Source of the DNA: Polyangia bacterium
GTDB lineage: Bacteria; Myxococcota_A; Polyangia; Palsa-1104; JAEUJZ01
Assembly (NCBI GenBank): GCA_046351595.1
Contig: JAXLYE010000002.1
Coordinates: 1,432,022 to 1,496,021, forward strand
Reading direction: 5' to 3'
Length of the DNA stretch: 64,000 nucleotides
Below, piece after piece: positions 2,898 to 42,324 of the stretch (positions within the stretch are counted from its first letter, which is position 1; every line of letters starts with the position of its first letter). Both the position numbers and the translations under genes were made by a program. Under the pieces are notes generated by a model. The model did not search any database and was not told where the DNA came from. It was given only the letters and a program-made list of their open reading frames with translations.

Positions 2898-3168
2898 TCG
2901 ATGACACGGGCGACCGGCGCAGGCCAGAGGACAGCCGTAGCGATGCCGCCAGCGACGCTGCGGCCTGCCGCGGGGCGTGTCGGCACGGCGGTCCCGAGGG
3001 CGCGGCGGAGCGGGTCGCATTCCGGTTCGTGTTTTCGGTCGTGTTTCTGGCCGGCAACGGTGCAGGCGCCCCGGCTCGCGCCCGCGCACGGCCGGGGCTC
3101 GCCGGTCCCGTCGTTGCACCGTCGGCAGATTGACCAAAGGCCTTGTAGCTAGGTAAGCTGGGTCGGCT

Positions 3169-9094: not shown

Positions 9095-9173
<79 letters not shown>

Positions 9174-9364: not shown

Positions 9365-10882
9365 TCAGAACCCGCGCTGGTTGCTCGGGAAGTTGCTGGG
9401 CGGATCCGGCGGCGGCGGGCCGCCCTGGCCGGCGGTGCCGGGCTGACTCGGGGGCGGGCTGGGCGCGGCCTCGGCGGGCGGCAGGCCGGATGAGGGCGAA
9501 GGCGACGGCGGCGGTGGCGGCGGCGGGCTGGGCTGCGCCTCGACCGCCGGGGCTGGCGGGGGCGGCGGCGGCGGCAGGGTCGCCGCGGGCGGCGGGCTGC
9601 TGACCGGCGGCGGGCTGACCGCACCCGGAGCGAGCGACGGCGAGGCCCCGGCCTGCACGGCGCCGAGCGAGCCGCCGCGCACGGTGACGCCCTCGGGCGG
9701 CTCCTTGGACGGCCGCGAGCGCGGCAGGGCGATGCTGCCGGTCACCGCGAAGCCGATCGCGCCGTCGGGCCGCTTGCCGACCGCCATGGCGTTGTTGAGG
9801 ATCTCGAACGTCGGCTCGCGCTGCACCAGCTGCGGCGACGGCTTGAAGCGCACGTACAGGTGCAGCTCGGACAGCGGCATGGGGTCGCGCAGCTCGATGT
9901 AGCCGTCGATCGACAGCTCCACGTCCGGCGAGCGCGTGCGCAGCTCGGTGATGGTGGCACGGCCCCGGTCGACCACCACCTTCGCCTGCAGCGTGCCCAG
10001 CGACAGGCGCGGGAACGTCAGGCCCTGCGACAGGAACGGGTCGCCCGGCACCACCAGCTTCGCCTTGCCGTCGCCGAGCGTGCCCTGCACCAGCGACAGC
10101 TCGATCAGGCCCGCAGCCTTGGCCAGGTCGAGCTTCGGGGCGCCCCCGCGCGCCACGGCCGGCGGCGCGCCGGGCGGCGGCTTCACGAGCGGCGCCTTGG
10201 CGTCCACCGTGCCCGAGAGCGTGCCGGTCAGCGGCAGCGGCAGCAGCTGCGCCAGGTACGAAACCAGCCCGAGCTTGATGCCGTCGAGCTTCGCGCTCAC
10301 CTCGCCGCCGTCGTCACCGAGCCCGCCGGCGCCGGTCAGCGAGCCGCCGAAGGCCTCCAGGCGCACGCGCGCCGCCGGCCGCTGCGTGACAAGGTCCATC
10401 CAGCCGATCCGCACGTCGAGCAGGTCGACCAGCATCGGCAGCGGCTTCTTCTTCTCGGCGCCCGCGTCGCCCGGCGGCGGGGCGGCGGTCGGGCTCCGGC
10501 GCGGCACCAGCTTGACGTCGGTCAGCGAGGCGCCCGGCGACAAGAGGTGGACGTCGAGCTCGCCGATGGTCACGTCCATGCCGCTGCCGATGCCCCAGCC
10601 GCCCGAGCCGTACGGCGGCGGGCCCGGCTCCTGCGACAGCTCGCGCTGAAGGCGCTCCTTGATGCGGTCGAGCGGCAGCGACAGGTACAAAGAGAAGATG
10701 AACACCGCGAGCCCGAACGTCCCGTAGAGCAGCGCGCGCAGGACGAGCGGCGGCTTCTTGAGCAGCCGGCGCAGCCGCAGCCCGCCGCGCGGCGCCCCGG
10801 TCGCGGCGGTCATGCCGGAGGTCATCGGATCGGTCGTGCCGGTCGTCATGGCGGGCGTCGAGGTTACCGGAGTCGCCGACAT
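9365..10882 (-). CDS. gspN: Type II secretion system protein N with an unusually long Pro-rich C-terminal tail
   Basis: Last gene of the gspF-N operon. It has an N-terminal transmembrane helix ([18 protein letters not shown]), and GspN-like length and composition for the first ~330 aa, then a PPPPPP-rich tail. Its ATG overlaps the gspM stop (cat at 10880-10882; gspM stop TAA at 10883-10885). Confidence 0.6.
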
Positions 10883-11512
10883 TTACGGCGCCTCTTTCTC
10901 GCCCTCGGCCTTGGCGTCCGCCTTGGTCGACTTGGGCGCGGTCTTGGGCGCGTGCTCGTAGGTCGACACCGTCATGTCCACCTCGAACTCCTCGTGCTTG
11001 TCGTCGCGCGCGCGGATCGACAGCTGCGTCACCAGCACCAGGTTGCTCGGGTAGGTCTCGAGCCGGTGCATGAACTTGAGCAGCGGCTCGAGCTTGACGC
11101 GGCCGAGCCGCAGGTCCACCGACTGCTGGATGTACTTCTTGCCGATGGGCTCGGGCGTGCGCGGGTTGGTCTCGCGGATCTCGATGGTCGCCTCTTTCGC
11201 CATCTGCTCGAGGAAGCCCGAGAGCGACAGCGGGCTCGAGCCGATGCGCGCGTCGAGCTGCGACTGCCGCGCCCGCGCCGAAAGGTACGGCCCGCGCTTC
11301 TTGGCGATGTCCGACAGCGCCTTCTCCATCGCCAGGTTCTTCTCCTCCAGCGTGTCGATGCGGTCGTACAGCGAATAGGCGCCGAACAGGAACAGCAGCA
11401 GCACCACCACCGCGCCGAGCAGCGCGAGCAGCGACCGCTCGCGCGCCGACAGCCCCTCGAAGGCGTCGCGCAGCCGGGCGAGCGGCGGGAACTTGGTGAG
11501 GATCTCGCTCAT
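10883..11512 (-). CDS. gspM: Type II secretion system protein M
   Basis: 209 aa with one N-terminal transmembrane helix (LLALLGAVVVLLLFLFGAY). It sits between gspL and gspN in the canonical order. Confidence 0.65.
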   Translation of the reverse strand: MSEILTKFPPLARLRDAFEGLSARERSLLALLGAVVVLLLFLFGAYSLYDRIDTLEEKNLAMEKALSDIAKKRGPYLSARARQSQLDARIGSSPLSLSGFLEQMAKEATIEIRETNPRTPEPIGKKYIQQSVDLRLGRVKLEPLLKFMHRLETYPSNLVLVTQLSIRARDDKHEEFEVDMTVSTYEHAPKTAPKSTKADAKAEGEKEAP

Positions 11513-11528
11513 GGTCGCTGGTTCCTTC

Positions 11529-13307
11529 CTACAGGCACGTATTCTCGATCTCGAGCGAGAACTGCTTGACCTCGACCGGCTTGCCGTCGGGCCCGTTGTT
11601 GCGCACGGTCAGCACCTTGCCCTTCTGCACGCTCTTGATGCAGGGCAGCTTCTTCAGCATCTCGGCGAAGTCGTCGACGTACTGCGCCGAGCCGCACGTC
11701 GCCTTGAGGTCGATCTTCTTCGGCCGGATCGACAGGTCGACGACGTCCAGGCGCGCCGGCCCGGCCGCGTTCTTCTCGGGCGCGTTCTTGGAGATATCTT
11801 CCAACAAGTCCAGCGCCGAGAAGCGCGGCACGCTCTTGTCGCCCTTGTCGGCGCTGATCGCGGCGTTGAGCTCGGAGGACACCTGGTGCCCGTCCTGGAT
11901 CTCCTTGCCGAACAGCGTCATCGACTCGCTGGCGAGCTGCTGGCGCAGGCGCTCGTGCTCGCGGTCCAGCACCTTGAGCGTCGCCCACGCCCAGCCGGCC
12001 ACGCACAGAAGGATCGCCGCGGCAAAGCCCGCGAACAGCGGCGCCTTCTCGCGCAACAGCGCCAGGTCCGAGCGGTACGCGAACTCGCCCTTCCTGAAGT
12101 TCAGCTGCGGACCGTCGCCGGCCATCGCCAGCGCCAGGCCCACCGCGGCGCAGCCGGTCGGCCACAGCCGCACCAGCTGCGCGTGGCTGACGTGCGTGCG
12201 CGTCGCCTCATCGATCATGCCGACGCCGCTCATCGAGATCGCGGCGAGCTCCTTGGCGCCCTGCCGGAGCCACGGCGCGCCCGGCGGCGGCAGCAGCGAC
12301 TGCGTCGTGATCCCGAGCTCGCCCTGCAGGAACTCCTCGATGCCGTGCAGGTGGCTGGTGCCGCCGCACAAGAGCAGCAGCTGCGGCGGCCCGCCGTAGC
12401 GCGCGCTGTAGGCGGCCAGCGTCTGCCGCAGGTCGCGCAAGAGCGGCTTCATCGCCTCGCGCAGCGTGTTCTTCACCCGCGCATCGCCGGAGCCGACCAG
12501 GCCGATCTGGTGTTTCAGCTCGGTCGCGCGATCGAGGTCGACGTCGAGCGCGCGCGCCACCGAGAGCGTCAGCTGCTCGCCGCCGCGCGCGATGGTGCGC
12601 GCGAACTGCGTCAGCACGTGCCCCGGTCGCCCCGGCTGCGGCGTCACCGCGACGACGTGGGTGTTGCGGTGGCCGAGATCCAGGACCCACACCGGCCACT
12701 CCGCCAGCGACAGGCTGTTCGGCTGCGGCAGCGTGCGCGCCGCCAGCACCGCCGCGGTCGCGATCGCCGAGACCCCGACCAGCCGCGGCTCGAGCTGCGC
12801 GCCGGCCAGCGCCTCGATGATCTCGCGCACCGCGCTCTTGTCGGCGCTCGCCGCCAGCCACAGCGACGAGGCGTCGCCGCCCGCACGGATCTGCGCCGGC
12901 TGCGCGACCGTCTGATCGACGATCTGGTCGTCCAGGTCCGACATGAGCTGGCCCGCCAGCTCGAACGGCAGCGCCGCCTGCACCTTCTTCGGATCCGACA
13001 GCGGCATGTCGACCAGCCGCAGCGTCACGCCGTCCGAGAGGCCGACCGCGGTGGACTCGCTGCGCAGCCGCTGCGCGGACAGGAGCGTCTGCAGCGCGCG
13101 CAGCTGGCGCTGGCGCAGCGGCTCGGGCTCCGAGGCCGCGCCGGCACCGCCTTCGCCACCGGCCTCCTCGTCGGACTCCGGCAGGGTCGGCGGCGGCACC
13201 AGGGCCTCGTCGATGTGCACCAGGCTCACCGTGCGGAAGCCCTGATCGAGCCGCGCCACCTTCACCGCGTAGCTCCCGAGATCGATGCCGAGAATCGTCG
13301 TCGCCAT
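11529..13307 (-). CDS. gspL: Type II secretion system protein L (actin-like cytoplasmic domain plus transmembrane segment plus periplasmic domain)
   Basis: 592 aa. The N-terminus ILGIDLGSYAVKVARL is PilM/GspL-like, and an internal transmembrane segment is present (LFAGFAAAILLCVAGWAWA). Position matches the operon order. Confidence 0.7.
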   Translation of the reverse strand: MATTILGIDLGSYAVKVARLDQGFRTVSLVHIDEALVPPPTLPESDEEAGGEGGAGAASEPEPLRQRQLRALQTLLSAQRLRSESTAVGLSDGVTLRLVDMPLSDPKKVQAALPFELAGQLMSDLDDQIVDQTVAQPAQIRAGGDASSLWLAASADKSAVREIIEALAGAQLEPRLVGVSAIATAAVLAARTLPQPNSLSLAEWPVWVLDLGHRNTHVVAVTPQPGRPGHVLTQFARTIARGGEQLTLSVARALDVDLDRATELKHQIGLVGSGDARVKNTLREAMKPLLRDLRQTLAAYSARYGGPPQLLLLCGGTSHLHGIEEFLQGELGITTQSLLPPPGAPWLRQGAKELAAISMSGVGMIDEATRTHVSHAQLVRLWPTGCAAVGLALAMAGDGPQLNFRKGEFAYRSDLALLREKAPLFAGFAAAILLCVAGWAWATLKVLDREHERLRQQLASESMTLFGKEIQDGHQVSSELNAAISADKGDKSVPRFSALDLLEDISKNAPEKNAAGPARLDVVDLSIRPKKIDLKATCGSAQYVDDFAEMLKKLPCIKSVQKGKVLTVRNNGPDGKPVEVKQFSLEIENTCL

Positions 13308-13370
13308 GTTTGTTCTGGACCTTGAGCCGGGCGCGCTGCCAAATCGCGCGCTCTCTTTTTTCGATCGACC

Positions 13371-14993
13371 TCAGTCGATGCGGAAGTATTTCCAGGTGCC
13401 GCGGTTGCAGCTCGGGTGGTTGAAGCACACCGGCGTGCTGTTGAAGCTGCGCGCGTCCCACACGCCGCGCACGTGGACCTCGGTGGCCTTGTTGCTGCCG
13501 CGCGCGACGATGCCGGTGGCGTCGATGCGGAAGAAGCGCCGCGTCACCGACTTGCCGCTCGTCGGGGTGCCGCCCGGCGGCGCGCCCGGTGGCAGCGGCG
13601 GCGGCGCGTTCTTGTCGCGCAGGTAGTTGGCGAGCATTCCCGGGCACAAGGGGATCGGCCGCAGCCCGACCGAGGGCCTGGGCGCCGTGCTCATCCCGGT
13701 CATCATCGCCAGCGACTCCGAGAGCTGCGGCAGCTGCCCGATCATCGGGCTGCAGATCAGATCCGACAGCATCTGGATCGAGTCGCTCGCGGTCGTCGTC
13801 TTTGTGGTCGTCGTCTTTGTGGTCGTCGTCTTTGTGGTCGTGCTGCCGGTCACGTTCGGGCACTGCCGCACGTCGACGTTGCACGAGGGGATCGGCATCT
13901 TGCCGCCCATCTGCCGCAGCATCGGCAGCCCGCCCTTCAGCATGCCCGCCACCTGCTGCGCCACCATCATCGTGTTCGGATCGAACACCGCGCTCTTGTC
14001 CGCCGCCGAGGCCGCGATCATCGCCGCCACCAGCGGCCACGAGTCCGGCGAGATCGCCGAGGCCAGCACCTTGCACTCGCTGCCGCCGTAGACCGTGAAC
14101 ATCTCGCCGAAGTTCAGGTAGAAGTCGTCCGAGATGCCGCGCACCAGCAGCATCTCGTCGATGGTGTCGAGGTAGTGGTTGTGCGCCTCGTAGCGGTCGC
14201 GCCCCTTGTCGTAGCGGTCCTCGCTGGCCGAGCCCGAGCCGGTGACGCTCAGCGGATCGAAGCGCATCGGGTCGATGTCCGTCCAGTCGATGACGCCGAG
14301 CGGCAGCTCCTCGCGCTTGATCACCACGCCGTCGCGATCCGGGACCTCGAACATGCGGTCGTAGCGCGTCGGCCGCACCAGGTTGTACATGAGCAGGTAC
14401 AGGTTGCGCTGCAGCTCGCGGTTGGGCGTCACGCCGCCGCCGCAGTTGATCAGGTACTTGCCCTCCTCGGACGCGATCTTGACGTCGAACGAGGTGCCGT
14501 TTGGCGTGCCCATGCCCTCGGCGTTGCCGAGGTCGATGCCGACGAGCGAGCCCAGGCCGTCGCGCGCCTCTTTGTCGCCGCCGAAGGCCTTGGCCAAGAA
14601 GCCTGCGTAGTCCGTGATGACGATGGCGTCCGCCAGGTCCGGCATCACCTGCGCCAGCATGCCCGAGACGCTGCCCTGCACCGCGGTCAGCAGCTGCCCG
14701 AGCTGCAGCCCGGCGCGCGCCAGGTACTCGGCGCGCAGCCTGTCACGGCTGTTCGCCGCGGCCTCGATCTCGACCTGCGTGCTGTACGCGAAGTCGCTCG
14801 CCGTCGCCGCGATCACCGACGTCGTCACCAGCACGATCAGGATGGCGATGCCGCGCTCGCGCCGCGTCGGCTCGCGCTTCGTCAGCCGCTTGAGCAGGAT
14901 CCGCCGCAGCCGCGCAAAGAACCCGGGGCGCGCCGCGGCGGTCGCCGCGAGGTCCGCAGGGTTCGGTCGATCTGCTCTTTGTGCCGTGTCCAT
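13371..14993 (-). CDS. gspK: Type II secretion pseudopilin K
   Basis: The start is taken at the ATG (cat 14991-14993) 8 nt after the gspJ stop. RRERGIAILIVLVTTSVIAATASDFAYST resembles the GspK N-terminus. It contains a TTTKT 15-bp x3 repeat at about 13800-13860. The longer ORF reaching 15302 is read-through. Confidence 0.7.
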   Translation of the reverse strand: MDTAQRADRPNPADLAATAAARPGFFARLRRILLKRLTKREPTRRERGIAILIVLVTTSVIAATASDFAYSTQVEIEAAANSRDRLRAEYLARAGLQLGQLLTAVQGSVSGMLAQVMPDLADAIVITDYAGFLAKAFGGDKEARDGLGSLVGIDLGNAEGMGTPNGTSFDVKIASEEGKYLINCGGGVTPNRELQRNLYLLMYNLVRPTRYDRMFEVPDRDGVVIKREELPLGVIDWTDIDPMRFDPLSVTGSGSASEDRYDKGRDRYEAHNHYLDTIDEMLLVRGISDDFYLNFGEMFTVYGGSECKVLASAISPDSWPLVAAMIAASAADKSAVFDPNTMMVAQQVAGMLKGGLPMLRQMGGKMPIPSCNVDVRQCPNVTGSTTTKTTTTKTTTTKTTTASDSIQMLSDLICSPMIGQLPQLSESLAMMTGMSTAPRPSVGLRPIPLCPGMLANYLRDKNAPPPLPPGAPPGGTPTSGKSVTRRFFRIDATGIVARGSNKATEVHVRGVWDARSFNSTPVCFNHPSCNRGTWKYFRID

Positions 14994-15001
14994 GCCGCGC
15001 C

Positions 15002-15692
15002 TCACATCAGGCCCGAAGACGGCGAGGTGTCCAGGAGCTGCGACATCGCCACCCGCGTCTCGGACAGGAGCCACAGCTCCTCGCCCAGCTCGTCGCGGAT
15101 GCCGAGCTTGACCCGCACCCGCGTCGGCAGCCGGTTCGGGAACCCGTCCGCCTGCGCCGTGCGCCAGGTCTCCAGCCACTCCTTGCGATCCGGGTGGTAG
15201 TACGAGATCTCCAGCCGCACCACGTCGTCGGCCAAGAGCTCCGCCTCGCCCGGGATGTTCTCGAAGCGCTCGGCCTGTAGCCGCCGCGTCTCGCGCCGCC
15301 ACAGGTTCAGCTTGCGCGAGTCCTCCGGATCACGAAGCCCGTAGTAGCCGACCAGCGCGGTGTCCGCCTCCTTGGCGTCCGCGTACAGGCGCTGGTGACC
15401 GAAGTACGAGAAGCGCAGCTCGTCGATGTCCGGCCGGCGCACGCCGTCGAAGAACGTGCGCGGCGTCTGCTCGGTGCCGAGCACGTTGTTGTTCGACAGG
15501 TACGCCATCTGCACGTCGTGCAGGATGCGGTCCATCGCCAGCCGCGCGACGCGGTAGCGCGCCATCTTCGCCTCGACCGCGCGCTTGGACAGAAACGTCT
15601 GCCGGAACGAGGTCCACAACAGCACGGTGATCGAAGACAGGATCCCCACCGCCACCATGATCTCAAGCAGCGTAAACCCCGCCTGCCGCACC
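15002..15692 (-). CDS. gspJ: Type II secretion pseudopilin J
   Basis: Prepilin motif (M)RQAG|FTLLEIMVAVGIL with Glu at +5. GTG start (cac 15690-15692). The 456-aa ORF reaching 16372 is a frame artefact that overlaps gspI. Confidence 0.7.
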
Positions 15693-15762
15693 CGCGACCG
15701 CGCAGCCCGCCGACGAGGAACTGAACGCTCCGCGCAGCGCTCCGTATTCAGCCGCTCCCCGC

Positions 15763-16365
15763 TCACGGCGCCACCGGGATCCGACGCATGTCGGTGTAAA
15801 ACGTCACCACCTCGACCTTCTGATCGGGCAGCGCCGGCTCGTCCCACCACACCCGCACCGTCACGCGCCGGATGCCCTGCTCGAGCATCTCCTTGACCGG
15901 GCCGAGCAGCCCGCCCATGCCGCTCGTCAGGTTCCCGCCCTGGCTCGAGCTGCTCGAGCCGCTCGAGCTCGTGCCCTTGCCCGCCTCGCTCTGCTTGTCC
16001 TGCAACAGCTTGGTCGCCGCGGCCTGGATCTGATCCGCGCTCGGCAGCCGGATCTTCTCGGTGGTGCGCGTCCAGCGGAAGCGCTGAAACGCCTTGTCCT
16101 CGAACTCGCCCTTCTCTTCCTTGACCGCGACGTCGTCCTTGAAGCCCTCGGTGATAAAGTCGTTCTCCTGCTCGATCAGGAGCTTGCGCGCCAGGAACGT
16201 CGCCTGCGTCATGAAGCGCGCGTGCTGGCTGGCCCGCACCGAGCGCGCCAGCGCCAGCGTCAGCCCCGTCAGCGCCACCGACAGGATCGCCATCGCGATC
16301 ATCACCTCGAGCAGCGTGAAGCCCGCGGCCCCCCGTGCCCGTGCCCGTGCTCGCCGCACCGTCAT
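15763..16365 (-). CDS. gspI: Type II secretion pseudopilin I
   Basis: GAAG|FTLLEVMIAMAIL prepilin leader and helix. The size and position are right; the stop TGA at 15763-15765 gives ...MRRIPVAP*. Confidence 0.7.
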   Translation of the reverse strand: MTVRRARARARGAAGFTLLEVMIAMAILSVALTGLTLALARSVRASQHARFMTQATFLARKLLIEQENDFITEGFKDDVAVKEEKGEFEDKAFQRFRWTRTTEKIRLPSADQIQAAATKLLQDKQSEAGKGTSSSGSSSSSQGGNLTSGMGGLLGPVKEMLEQGIRRVTVRVWWDEPALPDQKVEVVTFYTDMRRIPVAP

Positions 16366-17093
16366 GAGCCACCCCGCGTCGGCGTGTCGCGCCCGTCGAA
16401 GTCCTGCGGCGGCGGCAGCCGACCGCTCTTCACCTCGACCCGCCCGGTCAGCCCGTGCACGAACAGCGTGTACTGATCGTCGTCGCTCGGGTCGGTGCCC
16501 AGGTGGATCACCGCGCGCTCGGTGTGCCCGTCGGGGAAGAAGTGCAGGTACGCGTGGCCCGCCTTATACGGCTCGCTCTGGCGCGGCGTCAGGATGTCCA
16601 GCACGTGCACCCGCGACATGCGCACGCTCGGCAGCGTCGTGTCTTTATATTCCGAGAACTTCGGCCGGCGCGGCGACGGCGGCGGCAAGAGCTCCGGCGG
16701 CAGGCCGGTGTCGCGCTTCTCGCTGTCCTCGGCCTGCTTGTCTTCCTTGTCCTTGTCGCGGCCGCGGCCGTTGCGCCCCGACTCCTCGCGCTGCTCGAGC
16801 AGCACCCGCGCCTCCGAGCGCTCCAGCCGGTACGTCTGCTGATCCAGATCGAAGTGCAGCCGGAAGTACGAGCCCGTCGAGATCGCGCGGTCGTAGCTGT
16901 AGCGGATGGCCGCCGCCAGCTTGCCCGACTGCGCCCGCAGCTCGCTCTTTACCAGGCTGCGCACGCCCAGCACCACGCCGCCGGTCAAGAGCGAGATCAC
17001 GGCCAGCACCACCAGCGTCTCGATCAGCGAGAAGCCGGCCTCGGTGCCCGCGCGCGGACCGCTCGTCCGCGGGTATGCCACAGGGCGCGCCAT
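16362..17093 (-). CDS. gspH: Type II secretion pseudopilin H
   Basis: TEAG|FSLIETLVVLAVISLL prepilin motif. It overlaps the gspI start by 4 bp. Confidence 0.7.
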   Translation of the reverse strand: MARPVAYPRTSGPRAGTEAGFSLIETLVVLAVISLLTGGVVLGVRSLVKSELRAQSGKLAAAIRYSYDRAISTGSYFRLHFDLDQQTYRLERSEARVLLEQREESGRNGRGRDKDKEDKQAEDSEKRDTGLPPELLPPPSPRRPKFSEYKDTTLPSVRMSRVHVLDILTPRQSEPYKAGHAYLHFFPDGHTERAVIHLGTDPSDDDQYTLFVHGLTGRVEVKSGRLPPPQDFDGRDTPTRGGS

Positions 17094-17103
17094 GCGGATC
17101 GTC

Positions 17104-17577
17104 CTACTTGTCCTCTTCCCACGACTTGATGTCGTCGGCCGTGCCTTCCTTGCCGTCCTTGCCGAGGCTGACCAGGTCGATCTCCGAGCCGTGCTCGCCC
17201 GGGCACTTGAAGACCAGCGGCCGGCCCCAGCCGTCCTTGGGCTCCTTGTTCAGGATCTTTCGCGTCGCCAGCTCCTGCAGGTTCGGCGGGCACGGCTCCG
17301 ACGACTCGGTCTGCCACTGCACGACCGCGTTCTCGATCGTCTTCATGACGTTGCGCGTCTCCTTCTTGCGCGCGCGCTCGAGGAACGCGAAGGCGCCGAA
17401 GCCGACCGCGCCCATCAGCATGCTGATGATCGTCAAGACGACCATGATCTCGATCAGGTTGTAGCCGCCCTGGCGGCGCGCCTGAAGGCGGCGGGCGTGA
17501 CGGGCGCGCAGGACGGAGAGGACGCGCGCGATCGAGCGGCGCACGGCGCGGGGAAGGGACTGGTTCATCGGGTTCAT
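17104..17577 (-). CDS. gspG: Type II secretion major pseudopilin G
   Basis: GG|YNLIEIMVVLTIISML together with the conserved DGWGRPLVF and SLGKDGKEGTADDIKSW motifs of GspG. The true start is probably internal, since the leader is too long from 17577. Confidence 0.8.
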   Translation of the reverse strand: MNPMNQSLPRAVRRSIARVLSVLRARHARRLQARRQGGYNLIEIMVVLTIISMLMGAVGFGAFAFLERARKKETRNVMKTIENAVVQWQTESSEPCPPNLQELATRKILNKEPKDGWGRPLVFKCPGEHGSEIDLVSLGKDGKEGTADDIKSWEEDK

Positions 17578-17640: not shown

Positions 17641-18939
17641 TCACTGCACGAACTGGTTCATCTCCATGATCGGCATCAGGATCGAGAAGACCACGAAGCC
17701 GACCGCGCCGCCCATCGCCAGGATCATCAGCGGCTCGAGCAGCGTCGTCAGGCGCCCGACCGCGATGTCGACCTCGAGGTCGTAGGTGTTGGCGACGTTC
17801 TCGAGCATCTGCTCGAGCTGGCCCGAGCGCTCGCCGACCGCGATCATGTGGCAGACGATGGCCGGGAACTGGTTCGAGCGGCGCAGCGGCTGCGCGATCG
17901 ACTCGCCCTCGCGGATCGACTCGCGCGCCTCCTCGACGACCTTGGTCAGCACCGAGTTGCCGAGCACGTTCTTGACGATCTCCATCGCCCGCAAGAGCTG
18001 CACGCCCGAGGCCAGCATCGTCGACAGCGTCTTGGCGAAGCGGCTGACCGCGACCTTGCGCGCCAGGCCCCCGAACACCGGCAGCTTCAGCACGAACTGG
18101 TCCCACTTGTAGCGGCCGCGCGGGCTCTGCTGCCAGCGGCGGAAGAAGTAGAACGCGACGAGCAGGCTCGGGACGAGCAGCCACAGGTAGTCGCTGAGCA
18201 CGGTGCTAAAGAAGATCAGGATCTGCGTATTGAGCGGCAGCGCCCGGCCGGTGTCGGCGAAGATCGCGGTCACCTTGGGCACCACCGTCGTCATCAGCAT
18301 CGACAGGATGAGCACGCCGATGACGGTCATCACCGCCGGGTAGAACAGCGCCGACACGATCTTGGCGCGCAGCTTGTTCTGCGCCTCGAGGAAGTCGGCC
18401 AGGCGCAGCAGCACCGCCTCGAGGTTGCCGGCGGCCTCGCCCGCGGTCACCAGGTTCACGTACAGCTCGTTGAACGCGCCGGGGTGGCGGTTGAGCGCCT
18501 GCGAAAGCGGCAGGCCCTCGTTGACCTGCACCTTGATGTCCGAGAGCACGCGCTTGAGGACCGGATCCTCGCTCTGCTCGATCAGCGCCTGCAGCGACTC
18601 CGAGAGCTGGACGCCGGCGCGCAGCAGCGTGCCGAGCTGGCGCGTCAGCACCGCCACCTCGGCCGGCTTGGCCCGGCTCTGCCGCGCCTCCCACCACTCG
18701 AGCAGGCCGTTGAGGTGCAGCGACTGCAGGAGCTCGGCCACGCCGCCCTGCGCCGCTACCGCCGCCGCGCCGCCGTCACCGGCCTTGCGCGCGCTGGCCG
18801 AGCCCGACTCGCGCACCTCGCTGAGCAGGATGCCGTCGCGGCGCAGCGCCTGGCGCAGGGCGCGCGGGCTGTCGGCGTCCTTGATGCCGCTCGTCGGCTT
18901 GCCCTTTGCGTCAAAGCCTCGGTACTGGTAGACGGGCAT
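17641..18939 (-). CDS. gspF: Type II secretion inner-membrane platform protein F
   Basis: 432 aa with the GspF-type start MPVYQYRGFDAKGK, two T2SSF repeats and three transmembrane regions. Confidence 0.85.
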   Translation of the reverse strand: MPVYQYRGFDAKGKPTSGIKDADSPRALRQALRRDGILLSEVRESGSASARKAGDGGAAAVAAQGGVAELLQSLHLNGLLEWWEARQSRAKPAEVAVLTRQLGTLLRAGVQLSESLQALIEQSEDPVLKRVLSDIKVQVNEGLPLSQALNRHPGAFNELYVNLVTAGEAAGNLEAVLLRLADFLEAQNKLRAKIVSALFYPAVMTVIGVLILSMLMTTVVPKVTAIFADTGRALPLNTQILIFFSTVLSDYLWLLVPSLLVAFYFFRRWQQSPRGRYKWDQFVLKLPVFGGLARKVAVSRFAKTLSTMLASGVQLLRAMEIVKNVLGNSVLTKVVEEARESIREGESIAQPLRRSNQFPAIVCHMIAVGERSGQLEQMLENVANTYDLEVDIAVGRLTTLLEPLMILAMGGAVGFVVFSILMPIMEMNQFVQ

Positions 18940-19043
18940 CGCCTCTCCCTAACACATCGGTCCCGGGCCGTCAGCTGACGGGGCAGCCGTCGGCGCTGGG
19001 TTCGGCCGGTTTGGGCCGTTTTGGCCGCTTTTGGAAAGATCAG

Positions 19044-19060
19044 CAGCAAGCCAGGTGCCA
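19044..19060 (-). promoter_or_regulatory. Sigma-54 (-24/-12) promoter of the gspF-N operon
   Basis: The minus strand reads g-TGGCAC-ctggc-TTGCT, a perfect fit to TGGCAC-N5-TTGCW, about 100 nt upstream of the gspF ATG. Confidence 0.65.
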
Positions 19061-19133
19061 CCGGCCCGGCCGCGCCGATCGCCCGCCACCGACGGAGATC
19101 CGCACCGGGTCGGGCGCCGCCGTCGGCGTCGGT

Positions 19134-19146
19134 CTGCCAATTTGGC
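19134..19146. promoter_or_regulatory. 13-bp perfect palindrome TGCCAATTTGGCA; candidate enhancer (UAS) for the sigma-54 activator, about 75 bp upstream of the gspF -24 element
   Basis: Seen in the sequence. Related copies lie at 23807-23819 and 23848-23860, upstream of the divergent gspC sigma-54 promoter. Confidence 0.5.
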
Positions 19147-19255
19147 ACACGAGGGTGACGGGCCCGCCCCCGCGCCTGCCAAAACGACAGAGCGCAAGCG
19201 ACAGGAGCGAGCCGTTAGCAGCCGTACCGATGGCGCGGCGGCGGCCGCGATCCGC

Positions 19256-19954
19256 TCAGGGCTTGGACTCGCCGCCCTCGCCCTCGCCGCTGTTCTTGAC
19301 GTCGATGGCGCTGGGGACGATGCGCTGCAGCGGCTCCTCCTGCGCGGTGGCGGTCGGGATCTCGCCGCGGATGTACGGGTCGACGAGCGCGCGGTCGGCC
19401 GGCTCCACGGTCGGGTGCTTCTCGCCGTAGACCATGAGGCCGCCGCCGACGACCAGGTGCAGGCCGCCGAGGATCATCGCGACCAGCGCGCCGGTGCCGT
19501 CGCTGTAGGCGCGCTGCGAGGTCGGCTGGTCCACGGCCGCACCGACGCCGAGGCCGATGTGGGCGACGCCCATGCCGAGGATCACGCCGCCGACCATGAG
19601 GAACGGGCTGGCCTTGGTGGCGCGCACCCGCAGAAATGCCGGCTCGTCCGCGCGCCCGAGCCCCTTCTTGAGCGCCGGATCGTCGAGGTACAGGTGCCGG
19701 TAGCGCAGCGTCACCGGCTCGCGGTCCTTCTCGCGCAGCGCCGGCAGGAGCGCGCCCTTTCGCGCGTTGTCCGGGACCTCGGTCATGAGCTCGGCCGCCT
19801 TGCGCGGCACCAGGAACGGCTCGGACAGGCTGCACCCCGACGCGACCAGGACGCCGAGCCCGCCGAGCCCGAGCGCCGCCAGCCCCGGGGCGCAGCTCGC
19901 CCGACGCCGCCGACTCCGGCCCCGGTCCCCTCGGGCTCGCTCGCTCGCCGTCAC
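19256..19954 (-). CDS. Hypothetical membrane lipoprotein
   Basis: Lipobox LVASGC, then hydrophobic segments (ASPFLMVGGVILGMGVAHIGLGVG, ALVAMILGGLHLVVGGGLMV). No recognisable catalytic motif. The start is uncertain. Confidence 0.5.
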   Translation of the reverse strand: MTASERARGDRGRSRRRRASCAPGLAALGLGGLGVLVASGCSLSEPFLVPRKAAELMTEVPDNARKGALLPALREKDREPVTLRYRHLYLDDPALKKGLGRADEPAFLRVRATKASPFLMVGGVILGMGVAHIGLGVGAAVDQPTSQRAYSDGTGALVAMILGGLHLVVGGGLMVYGEKHPTVEPADRALVDPYIRGEIPTATAQEEPLQRIVPSAIDVKNSGEGEGGESKP

Positions 19955-19961
19955 CGCCGCC

Positions 19962-22073
<2,112 letters not shown>

Positions 22074-22137: not shown

Positions 22138-22797
22138 TCAATAAAGGGCCCATGTCAGGTCGGTTTGCCCCAGCGGGCCCGTGACCCGCAAGATGATCTT
22201 GCGCGCCGTCGGACGCGGTACCGGCTGGTCGCCGAGCATCGCCGGGAAGCGCACCAGCCACAGCTTGCCGTAGGGGTCGCGCGACTCGTCCAAAAGCTCG
22301 AGCTGGCGCGGCTGCTCGGCGGTCGAAACCAGCTCGACCTTCTCGGCCACCACCTCGTGCCCCTCGTCGTCGAGCAGCGCCAGGCGCCACTTGCCGACCT
22401 CGGGGCGCAGATCGTTCCAGCGCGGCGAATAGGTCGCCGAGCGCAACCAGAAGGTCACGCTGCTGGCGTCGGCGAGCGCCGCGCCCTCGATGCGGGCGCG
22501 CTCGGCCGGGTCGCTGATGCGGTAGAGCTTCGTGTAGCGGTCGCTGTAGGCGTGCTGGTACGCGCGTGAGCGCAGCGTCGCCGACACCAGCAGCGACGTC
22601 TCCATGTCGCGCGTCGAGATGATGCGGCCCGAGCGGCTCCAGCGGTCGCGCGTCCTTGCGAACGAGGTGCCGGGCGGCTCGGCGTCGGCGCTCAGGCTGA
22701 CCGCCGCGGGCGCGCAGCCGGTCGCGCCCATCCCGATGACGGTGAGGGCAGCCAGCACGACGGCAGAGGTGAGCCGGGCAGCACAAGCGACGAGCAT
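22138..22797 (-). CDS. Hypothetical lipoprotein
   Basis: Signal peptide with lipobox (GMGATGC). 219 aa with no recognisable family. Confidence 0.5.
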   Translation of the reverse strand: MLVACAARLTSAVVLAALTVIGMGATGCAPAAVSLSADAEPPGTSFARTRDRWSRSGRIISTRDMETSLLVSATLRSRAYQHAYSDRYTKLYRISDPAERARIEGAALADASSVTFWLRSATYSPRWNDLRPEVGKWRLALLDDEGHEVVAEKVELVSTAEQPRQLELLDESRDPYGKLWLVRFPAMLGDQPVPRPTARKIILRVTGPLGQTDLTWALY

Positions 22798-22947
22798 GGG
22801 GTGAGTATATCTTTTCCCGACAGCAGCGGGCCGCGGCGAAAGCGGGCCGCGGCGGTTGTCCGGTTCGGGCGATTTGGGCGGTTCGTCCAGGTTTCCGGGC
22901 GGGTCGCCCGGACCCCGCGAGCTCGACCCGAGATCGTGGGTCGAGGG

Positions 22948-23565
22948 CTAGTCCCGCCGCTGCATCGCGCGCTGGCCGAGGCTGGGCAGCGCCGGGATGG
23001 TGCGCTCGGCCGGGGCCGCGGCGGGGCCCGGCGGCGCCGGCGGCGGCTCGGCGTGCGGCATGGCCAGCGCGCCCGGCGGCGACGCCACCGCGGGCACGCT
23101 CACCGGCTGCGTGGTCAGCACGCTCGGCGGCGGCGCGACGGGAGCCGGCGCGGCCGGGGCCTGCTGGACCGGGGCCGGGGCCGGGGCCGGGGCCTGCTGG
23201 ACCGGGGCCGGAGCCGGGGCCGGCGCCGTCGGGCGGGTCACGGCGCCCCCCTCGAGCAGGCTGGCGAGCTGCTGGTCCGAGACAAACGAGACGCGCGTCG
23301 CCATGATCTCTCCGAGCACCCTGCCGCCGACGTGCACGCGCACCGCGTCGCGCGCCTTCAGCGTCCCCTGGAACACACCCGCGACCAGCGCGTCGCCGAC
23401 CTCGGTGTCCTCGCAGCTCACGCTGCCGGTCTTGTTAACGAACAGCCGCCCGCGCACCCGCAGCGGCCCTCCCTCGATCTGGCCCTCAACCGTCAGGTCC
23501 TCCTCGGAGGCGACCTGGCCGATGATCTTGGTGCCAGAACCAATCGTAGTCTTCGTGCTTGCCAT
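22948..23565 (-). CDS. Bactofilin-family cytoskeletal protein with a Pro/Ala/Gln-rich C-terminal tail
   Basis: The N-terminal ~110 aa match the bactofilin (DUF583) fold pattern TKIIGQVASEEDLTVEGQIEGG...RVRGRLFVNKTG...VGD. An APAPAPAPVQQ repeat is encoded at about 23150-23230. Confidence 0.7.
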   Translation of the reverse strand: MASTKTTIGSGTKIIGQVASEEDLTVEGQIEGGPLRVRGRLFVNKTGSVSCEDTEVGDALVAGVFQGTLKARDAVRVHVGGRVLGEIMATRVSFVSDQQLASLLEGGAVTRPTAPAPAPAPVQQAPAPAPAPVQQAPAAPAPVAPPPSVLTTQPVSVPAVASPPGALAMPHAEPPPAPPGPAAAPAERTIPALPSLGQRAMQRRD

Positions 23566-23806: not shown

Positions 23807-23860
23807 TGTCATTTTGGCAAGGGCGCTCCGGCCCGGTCCCGGGGCGCTGTCAATTTGGCA
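23807..23860. promoter_or_regulatory. Two direct copies of the half-palindromic motif TGTCA(T/A)TTTGGCA (23807-23819 and 23848-23860); candidate enhancer sites upstream of the gspC sigma-54 promoter
   Basis: Both copies share the extended context gcGctgtcaWtttggca and lie 87 and 128 bp upstream of the -24 element. Confidence 0.45.
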
Positions 23861-23945
23861 GCCAGGCCGCGGCGCGGCGGCCCGGGCGGGCGCGGGTCCC
23901 CGTCGCTGAGCGGGCCCGGCGCGGCCGGCGGGCGTGGGCCGCTCG

Positions 23946-23961
23946 TGGCATTGACCTTGCA
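23946..23961 (+). promoter_or_regulatory. Sigma-54 (-24/-12) promoter of the gspCDE operon
   Basis: TGGCAT-tgacc-TTGCA matches TGGCAY-N5-TTGCW. The -12 GC is 41 nt before the gspC GTG. Confidence 0.65.
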
Positions 23962-24000: not shown

Positions 24001-24933
24001 GTGCTGCTCAAGAAGTACTTCTGGGTGCTGAACCTCGTGGTGATCGCGGTCTGCGCCTCGTTCCTCGGTCGGGCGACCGCCAGCTCGGTGGTCGGGCTGA
24101 TCCTGCGCGGCGACGGGCCGGCGCTGCCTCGGCGCGAGGGCGCGGCGGCGACGAGCAGCGAGCCGGTGCGCAGCAAGGACATCCAGTCCATCCTCGGGCG
24201 CAACATCTTCTGCTCGCAGTGCGCGCCGGTCTCGCTGACGCCCGACAAGCCCGTCGAGGACGGGCCGGTGGACACGACGCCGCAGCGCACGGCGCTGAAC
24301 CTGCAGCTATTGGCGACGATGGTCTCGCCCGGCGACTGGGAGTGGTCGATGGCCGTCATCCGCAACAACGACGACGAGAAGAAGTCCGTTGGCATCTACA
24401 AGCGCGGCGACAGCCTGCCGCTCGGCGGCGCGGTGCTGGCGCAGGTGGTCGAGGGCCGCGCCTACATGGTCGTCGGCAAGCGCGTCGAGTACCTGGACAG
24501 CAACAAGGAGGCGCCGCCGCCTCCGCCGCCGACCTCGGTGGCCAGCGTCGAGCCGATGCCCGGCGACGCGACCGGGCTGGAGAAGGACATCGACAAGGGC
24601 GTACGCTGCTCGGGCGCAAACTGCGAGGTCGACCGGAGCCTCATCGACAAGGTCCTGGCCAACACCACGGCGCTTGCCACGAGCGCGCGCTTCGTGCCCT
24701 CGATCAAGGACGGCAAGCCCAACGGCTTCAAGCTCTACGCCATCCGCCCCGGCTCGATGTTCGCGAAGATCGGGCTGCAGAACGCGGATCTGATCAAGGC
24801 CATCAACGGACTCGACATGGCGACCCCGGACAAGGCGCTTGAGGCGTACACCAAGCTCAAGAGCGCCTCGCACCTGACGGTCATGGTCGAGCGCCACGGC
24901 CAGAACATCACCCTCGATTACCAGATTCGGTGA
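24001..24933 (+). CDS. gspC: Type II secretion system protein C (N-terminal transmembrane helix plus C-terminal PDZ domain)
   Basis: GTG start giving LLKKYFWVLNLVVIAVCASFLG, which is GspC-like. The C-terminal PDZ-like region includes GFKLYAIRPGSMFAKIGLQNADLIKAINGLDMATPDKALEAY. It lies directly upstream of gspD. The longer ORF from 22801 is read-through. Confidence 0.75.
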   Translation: MLLKKYFWVLNLVVIAVCASFLGRATASSVVGLILRGDGPALPRREGAAATSSEPVRSKDIQSILGRNIFCSQCAPVSLTPDKPVEDGPVDTTPQRTALNLQLLATMVSPGDWEWSMAVIRNNDDEKKSVGIYKRGDSLPLGGAVLAQVVEGRAYMVVGKRVEYLDSNKEAPPPPPPTSVASVEPMPGDATGLEKDIDKGVRCSGANCEVDRSLIDKVLANTTALATSARFVPSIKDGKPNGFKLYAIRPGSMFAKIGLQNADLIKAINGLDMATPDKALEAYTKLKSASHLTVMVERHGQNITLDYQIR

Positions 24934-27578
24934 GCGTGAACATGACGACGCGGTTCAGACGGCTGCTTCCCAATTTTTTATACGGGCCCGTGCTCGGGGC
25001 CGTGCTCGGGGCGGTGCTCGCGCCCGGCGCGGCCTTGGCGCAGAAGACCCCGGCCACGGACCCGACGCGCATGATCCGCGTCGCCAACCCGGCCACCGCG
25101 GCGCCGCTGAACGTGCAGCCGGGTCCGACGTCGCCGCCGCCGCCGGCCGCCAGCCCCGGGTCGGTGGTGTCCCCGGGCGCCGCGGGCCAGGCCGCCGGCG
25201 CCGGCCAGAAGGCCGCCGACGACCTGCCGCTGCCCGGCGAGAAGGAGTTCAACGAGTGCCGGACCTTCCCGGGCAACAAGAAGGTCAGCATCAACCTCAA
25301 GCCCGAGACCGAGCTGCTCGAGCTGATCGGCTGGATCAAGGCGATCTCGTGCCGGCCGTTCATCCTGCCGGCCAACATCCGCCAGTCCAAGGTGACGATC
25401 ATCGCGCCGCAGCTGGTCACCGCGAACGAGGCCTACCGCATCTTCCTCTCGGCGCTCGAGTCGATGGGCCTGACCGTGCAGCCCGACGGCAAGGTCCTCA
25501 AGATCATCGAGAGCAGCCGCGCCCGCGAGTCGTCGATCCCGGTGGTCGCGCCGGGTGAGGTGGTGCCGCGCGCCGAGCAGTTCGTGACGCGCCTTTTGCG
25601 CCTGAAGAACATCACGCCCGACGAGGTCGTGCAGGTGCTGAACCGCCTCAAGGGCCGCGACGGCGACATCATGCCGTACGCCACGACGAACACCCTGGTC
25701 ATCACCGACCTGGCGTCGAACATCCGCCGCATGGAGGACGTGGTGCGGGCGCTCGACGTGCCGATGAGCGGCGAGAAGATCTGGGTGATTCGCCTGCGCA
25801 ACATCGTCGCCACCGAGGTGACGCAGATGCTGCAGCAGGTCTTCGGCGTCGGCAAGCAGGCGGGCAGCGGCCAGGCGCGGCGGCCGCCGATCAGCGTCAG
25901 CAGCGCCGGCAGCGACAACGGCCAGCCCGGCCCGAGCAACGAGGGCGGCGACTCGATCAGCCAGATCTACGCCGACGACCGCACCAACTCGATCATCCTG
26001 GTCGCGGCCGAGCGTACGTACCAGCGCGTCTTCGCGCTGATCAAGCGCCTGGAGGTCCAGAGCAGCACCGGTCCCACCGGCCGCATCCACGTCTACGCGC
26101 TGGAGAACGCGCTGGCCGAGGACATGTCGCAGGTGCTCGGCGGCCTCGGCATCTCGGTGAGCAGCAGCGGCGCCCGCCCCGGCCAGCGGCCCGGCGCCCG
26201 CCCGACGCCGCAGAGCAGCGGCGGCTCGGGCCAGGGCAACACCGGCATCTTCCAGGACGAGGTCAAGGTCACCCCGGACAAGGCGACGAACTCGCTGGTC
26301 ATCGTCGCCACCAACAAGGACTTTTTGACGCTGCGCGACGTCATCCGCCGCCTCGATCTGCCGCGCCGGCAGGTCTTCATCGAGGCGACGGTGATGGAGG
26401 TGACCATCGCCAAGCAGCGCAACCTCGGCCTCGCGTATCACGGCGGCTACCCGATCGACATCGCCGGTCAGCAGACCACGGTCATCGGCGGCCTGGAGAG
26501 CGGCAAGCTCAACTCGCTGTCGCCGCTGTCGGCGCTCGCGCTGACCGGCCTGGTCGGCGGCGCCATCGGCCCGCAGTTCTCGGCCAACAGCATCTTCGGC
26601 CAGGGCGCGACCGGGACCGGCAGCTCGGTGCTGCCGCCGATGTTCGGTGTGCTCATCCAGGCGCTGCAGACCAACAGCGAGAGCAACGTCCTGCAGGTGC
26701 CCAACATCCTCACCACTGACAACGAGAAGGCGACGATCACCGTCGGCCAGAACCTGCCGTTCCCGAGCGCCCTGACCTCGAGCCTGCCGCTCGGAGCCGG
26801 CAGCGCCGCCGCGTCGCTGACGCCGTTCCAGTCGGTGCAGCGCCAGGACGTGCAGCTCAAGCTCGAGATCACGCCGCACATCAGCGCCGGCGAGCAGGTC
26901 CGCCTCGAGATCGACCACGAGGTCAGCGACGTCTTCGACAAGAACTACAACAACCTCGGCCCGGCGACGACCAAGCGCACGCTCAAGACCGTCGCCGTGG
27001 TGCGCGACCAGCAGCCGGTGGTGCTCGGCGGCATCATGAAGGACCGGGTCAACGAGTCGGTGACCAAGATCCCAGTGCTCGGCGACATCCCGATCCTCGG
27101 CTACCTGTTCAAGAACAAGGAGCGCTCGATCGACAAGCAGATGCTGCTGATCGTGCTGACGCCCTACATCATCAACGACCCGTCCGAGCTGTCGCGCATC
27201 TTCGAGCGCAAGACGCGCGAGCGCCGCGAGTTCATCGAGAGCTACACCGCCTTCGCCGACGACCGCGACGTCGCCACCGCGATCGACTACACCCGCAAGC
27301 GCGGCGCGCTCGAGGAGATCAACCGCACCGCGGTCGAGGCCGAGCGCGAGATGGTCGAGCTGCGCGCCGCCGAGCAGTCGCTCAACCGCGACTTCATCGA
27401 CGCCGGGCCGGTCGAGCTGCCGCCGATGCCGCGCGGACCGGCCCCCGGGGGCGCGGGCGCCGCGCCGGTGTCGCCGGGCCTGGCGCCGAAGCTGCCGCCG
27501 CCGCCGACCTCGGGCACGCCGGCCGCACCGAGCCCGCCGGTCGCGCCGCAGCCGGGACCGGGCCAGGCCCCGGGCTAG
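24930..27578 (+). CDS. gspD: Type II secretion system secretin
   Basis: 882 aa with a signal peptide, N0-N3 domain repeats and a conserved secretin C-domain (VLGGIMKDRVNESVTKIPVLGDIPILGYLFKNKER...LLIVLTPYII). The start is GTG 24930 or ATG 24942. Confidence 0.9.
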   Translation: MSVNMTTRFRRLLPNFLYGPVLGAVLGAVLAPGAALAQKTPATDPTRMIRVANPATAAPLNVQPGPTSPPPPAASPGSVVSPGAAGQAAGAGQKAADDLPLPGEKEFNECRTFPGNKKVSINLKPETELLELIGWIKAISCRPFILPANIRQSKVTIIAPQLVTANEAYRIFLSALESMGLTVQPDGKVLKIIESSRARESSIPVVAPGEVVPRAEQFVTRLLRLKNITPDEVVQVLNRLKGRDGDIMPYATTNTLVITDLASNIRRMEDVVRALDVPMSGEKIWVIRLRNIVATEVTQMLQQVFGVGKQAGSGQARRPPISVSSAGSDNGQPGPSNEGGDSISQIYADDRTNSIILVAAERTYQRVFALIKRLEVQSSTGPTGRIHVYALENALAEDMSQVLGGLGISVSSSGARPGQRPGARPTPQSSGGSGQGNTGIFQDEVKVTPDKATNSLVIVATNKDFLTLRDVIRRLDLPRRQVFIEATVMEVTIAKQRNLGLAYHGGYPIDIAGQQTTVIGGLESGKLNSLSPLSALALTGLVGGAIGPQFSANSIFGQGATGTGSSVLPPMFGVLIQALQTNSESNVLQVPNILTTDNEKATITVGQNLPFPSALTSSLPLGAGSAAASLTPFQSVQRQDVQLKLEITPHISAGEQVRLEIDHEVSDVFDKNYNNLGPATTKRTLKTVAVVRDQQPVVLGGIMKDRVNESVTKIPVLGDIPILGYLFKNKERSIDKQMLLIVLTPYIINDPSELSRIFERKTRERREFIESYTAFADDRDVATAIDYTRKRGALEEINRTAVEAEREMVELRAAEQSLNRDFIDAGPVELPPMPRGPAPGGAGAAPVSPGLAPKLPPPPTSGTPAAPSPPVAPQPGPGQAPG

Positions 27579-27627: not shown

Positions 27628-29580
<1,953 letters not shown>

Positions 29581-40229: not shown

Positions 40230-40301
40230 GCGGGAGTAACTCAGTGGTAGAGTGCCACCTTGCCAAGGTGGACGTCGCGGGTTCAAGTCCCGTCTCCCGC
40301 T
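40230..40301 (+). tRNA. tRNA-Gly (anticodon GCC)
   Basis: Hand-folded. Acceptor gcgggag/ctcccgc, anticodon stem ccacc/ggtgg with loop ttGCCaa, T arm gcggg-ttcaagt-cccgt. Confidence 0.85.
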
Positions 40302-40402: not shown

Positions 40403-40623
40403 CTGGCGCGCCTGGCCGGCTCTACCGACGGTTTCTGTTCTTTGACTGCTCGCTTTCCGCGGGCGGTTTCACCGGACAAATACTGCCGGACAGATCCTGA
40501 TAAATACCGGCCCCGCGTATCAGGGCGCCTCCCCGCTGCGGCGGACCGCGCCCGCCGCGGAACGGAAGCGGCGCAGACCCGCGCATTGAACCGACGGTGA
40601 CGCAGGTTTATCATGGGTCGGAA

Positions 40624-42324
<1,701 letters not shown>

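Follow-up and report, generated by a model that had tools for sequence, protein, structure and literature searches.

A Probable Sigma-54 Promoter Upstream of gspF in the Split T2SS Cluster of a Polyangia Bacterium

Introduction

How are the genes gspF to gspN transcribed when they no longer adjoin the rest of their T2SS cluster? The question is raised by a 64,000-nucleotide stretch of DNA from a Polyangia bacterium (the window; G+C content 70.5%), where two blocks of gsp genes face away from each other on opposite strands. An original prediction, made from the letters of this DNA, placed a consensus sigma-54 promoter upstream of gspF and proposed, on the strength of this motif and of a sigma-54 activator gene 1 kb away, that the gspF–N operon is under RpoN control. 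The promoter part of this proposal is strongly favored by the comparative evidence presented below, while the activator gene does not serve as its second pillar.

The gsp Genes of the Window

The gene gspF (17641–18939, minus strand) was assigned by its match to PF00482 (E=7e-64). It is followed on the same strand by gspG (17104–17577), gspH (16362–17093), gspI (15763–16365), gspJ (about 15002–15730), gspK (13371 to about 15002), gspL (11529–13307), gspM (10883–11512) and gspN (9365–10882), identified with Pfam and NCBIfam, so that GspF, G, H, I, J, K, L, M and N are present as a full set encoded on one strand with short or overlapping gaps. A tblastn comparison using GspG–N of the related locus L092 (loci are referred to by numbers of this form) gave 75–92% identity to gspG–N of the window (9365..17577). 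The operon's end is marked by a tRNA gene (9096–9169, plus strand) situated just past gspN; a second tRNA gene was observed on that strand at 40230–40301.

The remaining gsp genes are found on the plus strand: gspC (24001–24933; NF041515 GspC_delta, 306 bits), gspD (24930–27578; secretin domain) and gspE (27628–29580; T2SSE domain), the product of the last being 95% identical to GspE of L089. Between gspCDE and gspF–N lie 4.3 kb of unrelated genes and, as the two blocks are also on opposite strands, the T2SS cluster is considered split. L086 and L089 show the same separation of gspE from gspF. The intervening genes are ORF232 (19256..19954, minus strand), encoding a predicted membrane protein or lipoprotein with no family match and found among the loci compared only in L086 and L089 besides the window; a gene for a sigma-54 activator with FHA, GAF, AAA+ and HTH domains (19962..22073, minus strand; PF00158 E=7e-73, PF02954 E=5e-13); ORF219 (22138–22797), a lipoprotein-like reading frame of 219 codons upstream of the activator gene and on the same strand as gspF; and a bactofilin gene (22948–23565, minus strand) divergent from gspC.

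A Sigma-54 Element Upstream of gspF

The predicted promoter of gspF, PgspF, has the sequence TGGCACctggcTTGCT, that is TGGCAC-ctggc-TTGCT, and occupies positions 19045..19060 of the minus strand. It falls in the gap of 316 nt that separates gspF from ORF232, which in turn lies between the activator gene and PgspF, and has the correct orientation for gspF. Read on the minus strand from 19060 to 19045, the element has its GG and GC dinucleotides at the canonical −24/−12 distance of 10 nt and agrees with the sigma-54 consensus TGGCACG-N4-TTGCW at 11 of 12 positions. The motif, its strand and its exact GG/GC spacing are thus as originally described, and the distance of about 100 nt to gspF proved to be 105 nt, measured from the end of the −12 element to the ATG at 18939; the interval first given, 19044–19060, was correct in location and one base too generous at its lower end.

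By standard sigma-54 geometry, transcription would start at 19033..19036 (minus strand), about 11–13 nt after the −12 GC, giving a gspF 5'UTR of approximately 95 nt. A candidate ribosome-binding site for gspF, GGGAGAGG, is read from the sequence at 18942..18949 (minus strand), and the block ATGTGyTAGGGAGAGGCGATG at the gspF start is conserved in an alignment of relatives. The predicted 5'UTR exceeds those of L092, L096 and L098 by about 55 nt; the added part (18985–19030, minus strand) consists of short CAAAACGGCC-like repeats and has diverged already in L086. A scan of the gsp leaders against Rfam returned no match.

Whether such a motif could occur by chance was judged from counts and scores. 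The exact pattern TGGCAC-N5-TTGC is present once in the window, where 0.11 occurrences are expected, while the pattern with one mismatch is present four times against 4.6 expected and is therefore at chance level. Since this loose pattern is uninformative, a stricter log-odds PWM was built, trained only on the gspC promoters of 20 relatives with the window excluded. Over the 64 kb window, PgspF scored 20.7 bits, a second promoter preceding gspC (PgspC) scored 19.9 bits and the next best site 11.1 bits. Over 1.47 Mb of related DNA, every site scoring at least 19 bits was a gsp promoter, and outside gsp promoters only three sites of 17.4–18.0 bits were found. The PgspF motif is not a chance match. 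A separate candidate in the window, TGGCACGCTATTAGC at 48433, was rejected as a sigma-54 site because its PWM score was below 8 bits. No rpoN gene is present within the 64 kb window.

Shared Architecture of PgspF and PgspC

PgspC, the second predicted sigma-54 promoter (TGGCAT-tgacc-TTGCA; 23946..23961, plus strand), lies 40 nt before the gspC GTG at 24001, and its sequence is unchanged in L089. Upstream of PgspF and PgspC alike, a dyad of 13 bp occurs twice; it has the form TGNCA-N3-TGNCA, and its center is rich in A/T. The proximal putative UAS of PgspF, TGCCAAATTGGCA (19135..19147), is a perfect palindrome situated 87 nt upstream of the T of TGGCAC; the distal putative UAS, TGTCGTTTTGGCA (19177..19189; −129), lies 42 bp from the proximal one, contains one mismatch to TGNCA-N3-TGNCA and has the same sequence in L086 and L096. 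The putative UAS pair of PgspC (23807..23860) is formed by TGTCATTTTGGCA (23807–23819; −139) and TGTCAATTTGGCA (23848–23860; −98), within a block that is conserved in L089. The strict dyad occurs at four places in the window, three of which are these gsp sites; the fourth, at 40253, is inside a tRNA gene and was rejected as a chance match.

The spacing within each pair of the window is 41–42 bp, about four helical turns, and the PgspC set of sites is offset by 11 bp, one turn, relative to that of PgspF. Most of the loci compared have pairs 41–43 bp apart with the proximal site 63–100 nt upstream of the −24 element. As read from the sequence, the geometry of these putative UASs is the classical activator-site layout of sigma-54 promoters.

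A further conserved element, a CCGTCG box (19090..19095, minus strand), is located between the UAS and the −24 element of PgspF at about −36 and is invariant in the alignment of gspF promoters. The CGTCG box is found at the same offset in gspC promoters of the L001 type, where UAS, box and promoter have spacing identical to that of PgspF, and at −47 in PgspC of the window, shifted along with the sites. Viewed from the proximal UAS, a (C/T)CGTCG box follows about 52 nt downstream in both gsp promoters (19090–19095, minus strand; about 23899–23905, plus strand) and in relatives. It could be the site of an architectural protein or a bend.

Conservation among Relatives

Comparison with the nearest loci allows the age and the constraint of PgspF to be assessed. 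L086, a metagenome contig, encodes a GspF 99% identical to that of the window and has the same order of activator gene, ORF232 and gspF. A 60-nt block containing both sites and a 26-nt block containing the −24/−12 element are 100% identical between the two, while the flanks of these blocks differ by a 42-nt indel and many substitutions. A protein search yielded four further loci, L092, L095, L096 and L098, with GspF 87–90% identical. In these the cluster is unsplit, with gspE upstream of gspF, and the gspE–gspF spacer, 230–330 nt in length, carries the same module of promoter and sites. The alignment of the six gspF promoters (the window, L086, L092, L095, L096 and L098) has a mean column identity of 63%; no base of TGGCAC or TTGCT changes, and the 5-base spacer between them varies (ctggc, caggc, cgacc, ccgcc). 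The proximal UAS is found at −87/−88 in all six.

These data bear on the explanation that the motif is a chance or relic sequence, and that gspF–N is transcribed by read-through from ORF219, the activator gene and ORF232 or from an unrecognized sigma-70-type promoter. The chance-level count of one-mismatch patterns speaks for it, as does the lack of a predicted terminator upstream. The search of 18600–20200 returned neither a sigma-70 promoter nor a minus-strand terminator; it used E. coli consensus rules and is weak evidence. Such an origin is nevertheless hard to reconcile with a score 9 bits clear of the window background, with the confinement of matches of at least 19 bits in 1.47 Mb to gsp promoters, with −24 and −12 elements that stay fixed while the spacer between them varies in six lineages, and with partner sites that hold a fixed geometry, and it is regarded as very improbable. 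The training loci of the PWM and the loci compared share a phylogeny, and the conservation counts given here are therefore not independent events. The score and the conservation together suggest that PgspF is, in all likelihood, a functional sigma-54 (RpoN) promoter serving gspF–N. As no terminator was found between ORF232 and gspF, gspF may in addition receive transcripts that read through from the upstream operon.

At greater distances, the promoter before gspF disappears. Species-representative genomes were scanned with GspF, and 80 genome loci were examined for a promoter before gspF; the matches were to uncultured Polyangia and Myxococcales MAGs (at most 72% identity), Archangium and Myxococcaceae (about 50%) and Nitrospira (about 45%). 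A promoter upstream of gspF was absent from these 80 loci, because gspE abuts gspF there. Matches of the form 'GGCAA..TGGC' at −73/−140 before gspF in relatives were rejected, as they lie inside the gspE coding sequence. Loci of Nitrospira (L047, L056, L061, L073 and others) have a recurrent TGGCNCANCGGTTGCT 364 nt upstream of gspF, within the gspE coding region, which probably arises from a conserved motif in the protein.

The promoter before gspC, by contrast with that before gspF, is widespread. A strong −24/−12 element is present about 40–50 nt before gspC in at least 20 Polyangia and Myxococcia loci, with one or two TGNCA-N3-TGNCA sites upstream at conserved positions: −130/−88 in L001, L004, L006 and L017, −143/−100 in L002 and L010, −105/−63 in L003, and −63 in Archangium-like loci, which have one site. 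Two loci, L016 (about 4020) and L018 (about 4620), share a deviant −12 element, their gspC promoter reading TGGCAT followed by (G/C)TGAT and not TTGC. Several Archangium-like loci (L019, L020, L026, L036 and L050; about 3820–3870) possess a shorter PDZ gspC paralogue upstream of gspC, which has its own strong sigma-54 promoter (20.8–21.3 bits in L020, L026 and L050).

The occurrence of promoter and sites before gspC across relatives points to this module as the ancestral means of regulating the myxobacterial T2SS operon, and their presence in the spacer of the unsplit sister clusters indicates that the internal promoter predates the split. The sequence relationships lead us to propose a history in which the common ancestor of the clade acquired the internal gspF promoter as a copy of a regulatory region of gspC type, placing a second copy of the module between gspE and gspF, and in which the cluster later broke at this point. 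The internal promoter may have made the break tolerable, so that a multi-gene machine could be split while its co-regulation was kept. If this is true, the duplication of the module represents a natural experiment in which each half of a broken cluster has come under the same control.

Candidate Activators

The data presented above are consistent with a model for transcription of the split T2SS whereby sigma-54 RNA polymerase would dock at TGGCAC (−24) and TTGCT (−12) to form a closed complex, and an enhancer-binding ATPase bound to the dyads 87 and 129 nt upstream would loop over and remodel this complex, leading to opening. Transcription would then proceed from near 19034 through gspF-G-H-I-J-K-L-M-N. 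PgspC would drive gspC-D-E on the opposite strand and be co-activated through the same type of site; since PgspF and PgspC share this site type, one activator could switch on both halves of the T2SS together.

The loci in which a regulator gene adjoins gspC provide a first indication of what this activator may be. A REC-AAA+-HTH activator is encoded directly upstream of gspC in L016, L018, L021, L033 and L039. In L021, L033 and L039 a dyad site directly follows the stop codon of its gene, and in L016 and L018 the site still falls within the gene, close to its 3' end. These REC-type activators have a conserved HTH, AAQLLGI(S/A)TRTIYRKL. L003 encodes an activator of another type, GAF-AAA+-HTH, whose gene precedes the gspC promoter by about 1.2 kb.

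It could be argued that the palindromes are instead operators, bound by a repressor or by an architectural protein, and that activation of the sigma-54 promoter comes from elsewhere or from solution. The palindromes are known by sequence and position only, and the CGTCG box, conserved between them and the promoter, is a further element to be accounted for. Such a role is quite improbable given the layout of the sites, with pairs and distances to the −24 element typical of enhancer binding, their position at the 3' end of the REC-AAA+-HTH gene in the five loci above, and the finding that sites and promoter always occur together, never apart, among the loci compared. Activation through the dyads is accordingly retained here as the preferred reading.

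The activator gene to which the original prediction appealed is indeed present, with its 3' end 0.9 kb away, and the encoded FHA-GAF protein might bind the palindromes and activate PgspF, coupling secretion to Ser/Thr-kinase signals (through FHA) or small-molecule signals (through GAF). In the window as in L086 and L089, its gene sits between both gsp promoters; it is the only activator gene within the 64 kb window, and the AAA+ sigma-54 interaction domain of the protein is complete and accompanied by an HTH_8 domain. Its value as evidence is much reduced on comparison across genomes, where its orthologues lie elsewhere and neither a conserved linkage to T2SS promoters nor the site motif accompanies them. 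Orthologues with 60–75% identity occur in a conserved ORF219-activator(-bactofilin) context without gsp genes; the orthologue in the MAG of L002 is about 110 kb from the T2SS on the same contig; and in the vicinity of orthologues L082–L085, which have no gsp genes nearby, neither a TGNCA-N3-TGNCA site nor a sigma-54 site was found, though their HTH is essentially identical. Conversely, the same promoter and sites are present where gspE and not the FHA-GAF gene precedes gspF, and upstream of gspC in many genomes that lack this neighbor. The HTH of the REC-type activators is unlike that of the FHA-GAF protein, the difference including the recognition helix.

The sigma-54-contact loop of the neighboring protein also departs from the usual form, being GAFTSA, not GAFTGA, in the window and L086; among orthologues it is GAFTGA in two and GSFTGA in one. 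The loop variants GAFTDA and GAYTDA occur in activators with assigned regulons (PMC4641369), and the GAFTSA loop is therefore not decisive. Taken together, the comparisons make the FHA-GAF protein a rather unlikely regulator of PgspF. The cognate activator is most likely one conserved protein for TGNCA-N3-TGNCA that would be encoded at an unlinked position in the genome, and the best candidate, judging by gene neighborhoods, is an NtrC-type response regulator like those beside gspC in other lineages.

A possible counterpart exists in Myxococcus xanthus, where nla4 (MXAN_2516) encodes an orphan NtrC-like response regulator and gspD is MXAN2514. The likeness lies in a locus tag two from that of gspD, a closeness given by locus tags only, which recalls the REC-AAA+-HTH genes adjoining gspC in the five loci named above. 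The difference is that Archangium-like loci hold the PDZ gspC paralogue at this place and that no Nla4-like gene is present in the window. A GspC search from L022, seeking M. xanthus, returned only proteins of Archangium-like MAGs.

Relation to Known Systems

Sigma-54 control of the myxobacterial T2SS has been predicted in bulk before, and PgspF is a well-built but ordinary sigma-54 promoter. A 2025 PSSM survey describes Myxococcota as typically possessing sigma-54 together with many activators, and finds among its predicted sigma-54 targets an enrichment of T2SS COGs (GspC, D, E, F, G, J, K and L) that is stronger in Myxococcia than in Polyangia (PMC12316311). The survey concerns the same sigma factor, the same machine and the same phylum as the case of PgspF, and differs in being a bulk COG enrichment of purely computational nature. 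The searched passages and supplement of PMC12316311 do not mention an enhancer motif, the promoter architecture, an internal gspF promoter or a split cluster. The case of PgspF adds a testable T2SS regulatory unit with an exact promoter, an enhancer motif and a geometry. A literature search found no experimental study of sigma-54 control of a myxobacterial T2SS.

The arrangement resembles that of glnAp2, which is activated by NtrC and has a −24 GG and a −12 GC at fixed spacing, together with two dyad sites about 100–140 nt upstream that are roughly integral helical turns apart and act through looping. PgspF shares the −24/−12 spacing and the two upstream dyads at about integral turns. The glnAp2 sites, however, are of the form TGCACC-N5-GGTGCA and serve nitrogen assimilation, whereas PgspF has TGNCA-N3-TGNCA and serves a secretion machine. 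Within the Myxococcota, the M. xanthus pilA promoter, which is activated by PilR, is a sigma-54 promoter of another machine of the type IV filament family. The supplement of PMC12316311 gives its sequence as TGGCATgcctaCTTGCT. Its −24/−12 element is nearly identical to that of PgspF, while the system (a pilus), the gene and the activator sites are different. A secretion-system cluster with an activator gene inside it is known from H2-T6SS, whose cluster includes the gene for the activator Sfa2. Activation of the Pseudomonas aeruginosa H2-T6SS by RpoN/Sfa2 is described in PMC8855297. That system is similar to the present one in the sigma-54 control of a secretion-system cluster; it is a different secretion system, and in the window the activator encoded within the cluster is probably not cognate.

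We know of no explanation so far for the essentiality of rpoN in M. xanthus. This essentiality is unique to M. xanthus (Keseler & Kaiser 1997, as cited in PMC12316311), and gspD is also essential in this organism (PMC12475490). As gspD and sigma-54 are both essential there, sigma-54 dependence of the T2SS may contribute to rpoN essentiality, and a sigma-54 promoter on the T2SS operon throughout the phylum would give a concrete hypothesis for this puzzle. An extended form of the idea holds that the whole T2SS has depended on sigma-54 since the ancestor of Myxococcota, by way of a dedicated activator and the conserved TGNCA-N3-TGNCA enhancer, and that this could be a main reason for rpoN essentiality in M. 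xanthus; it is offered tentatively and is on balance doubtful. The viability of nla4 mutants counts against its simple form.

Surroundings of the Neighboring Activator Gene

The operon of ORF219 and the activator gene shows a TATACT −10-like hexamer about 7 nt before the ORF219 ATG (22797), within 22798–22830 of the minus strand, which is kept in L081, L082 and L083. This suggests a sigma-70-type promoter giving rise to a leaderless or near-leaderless mRNA, in which case the activator gene would not be autoregulated by sigma-54. Two Ser/Thr protein kinase genes were observed on the plus strand at 3157–4938 and 40504–42324, one of them with a PEGA domain, and their products may feed into the activator's FHA domain.
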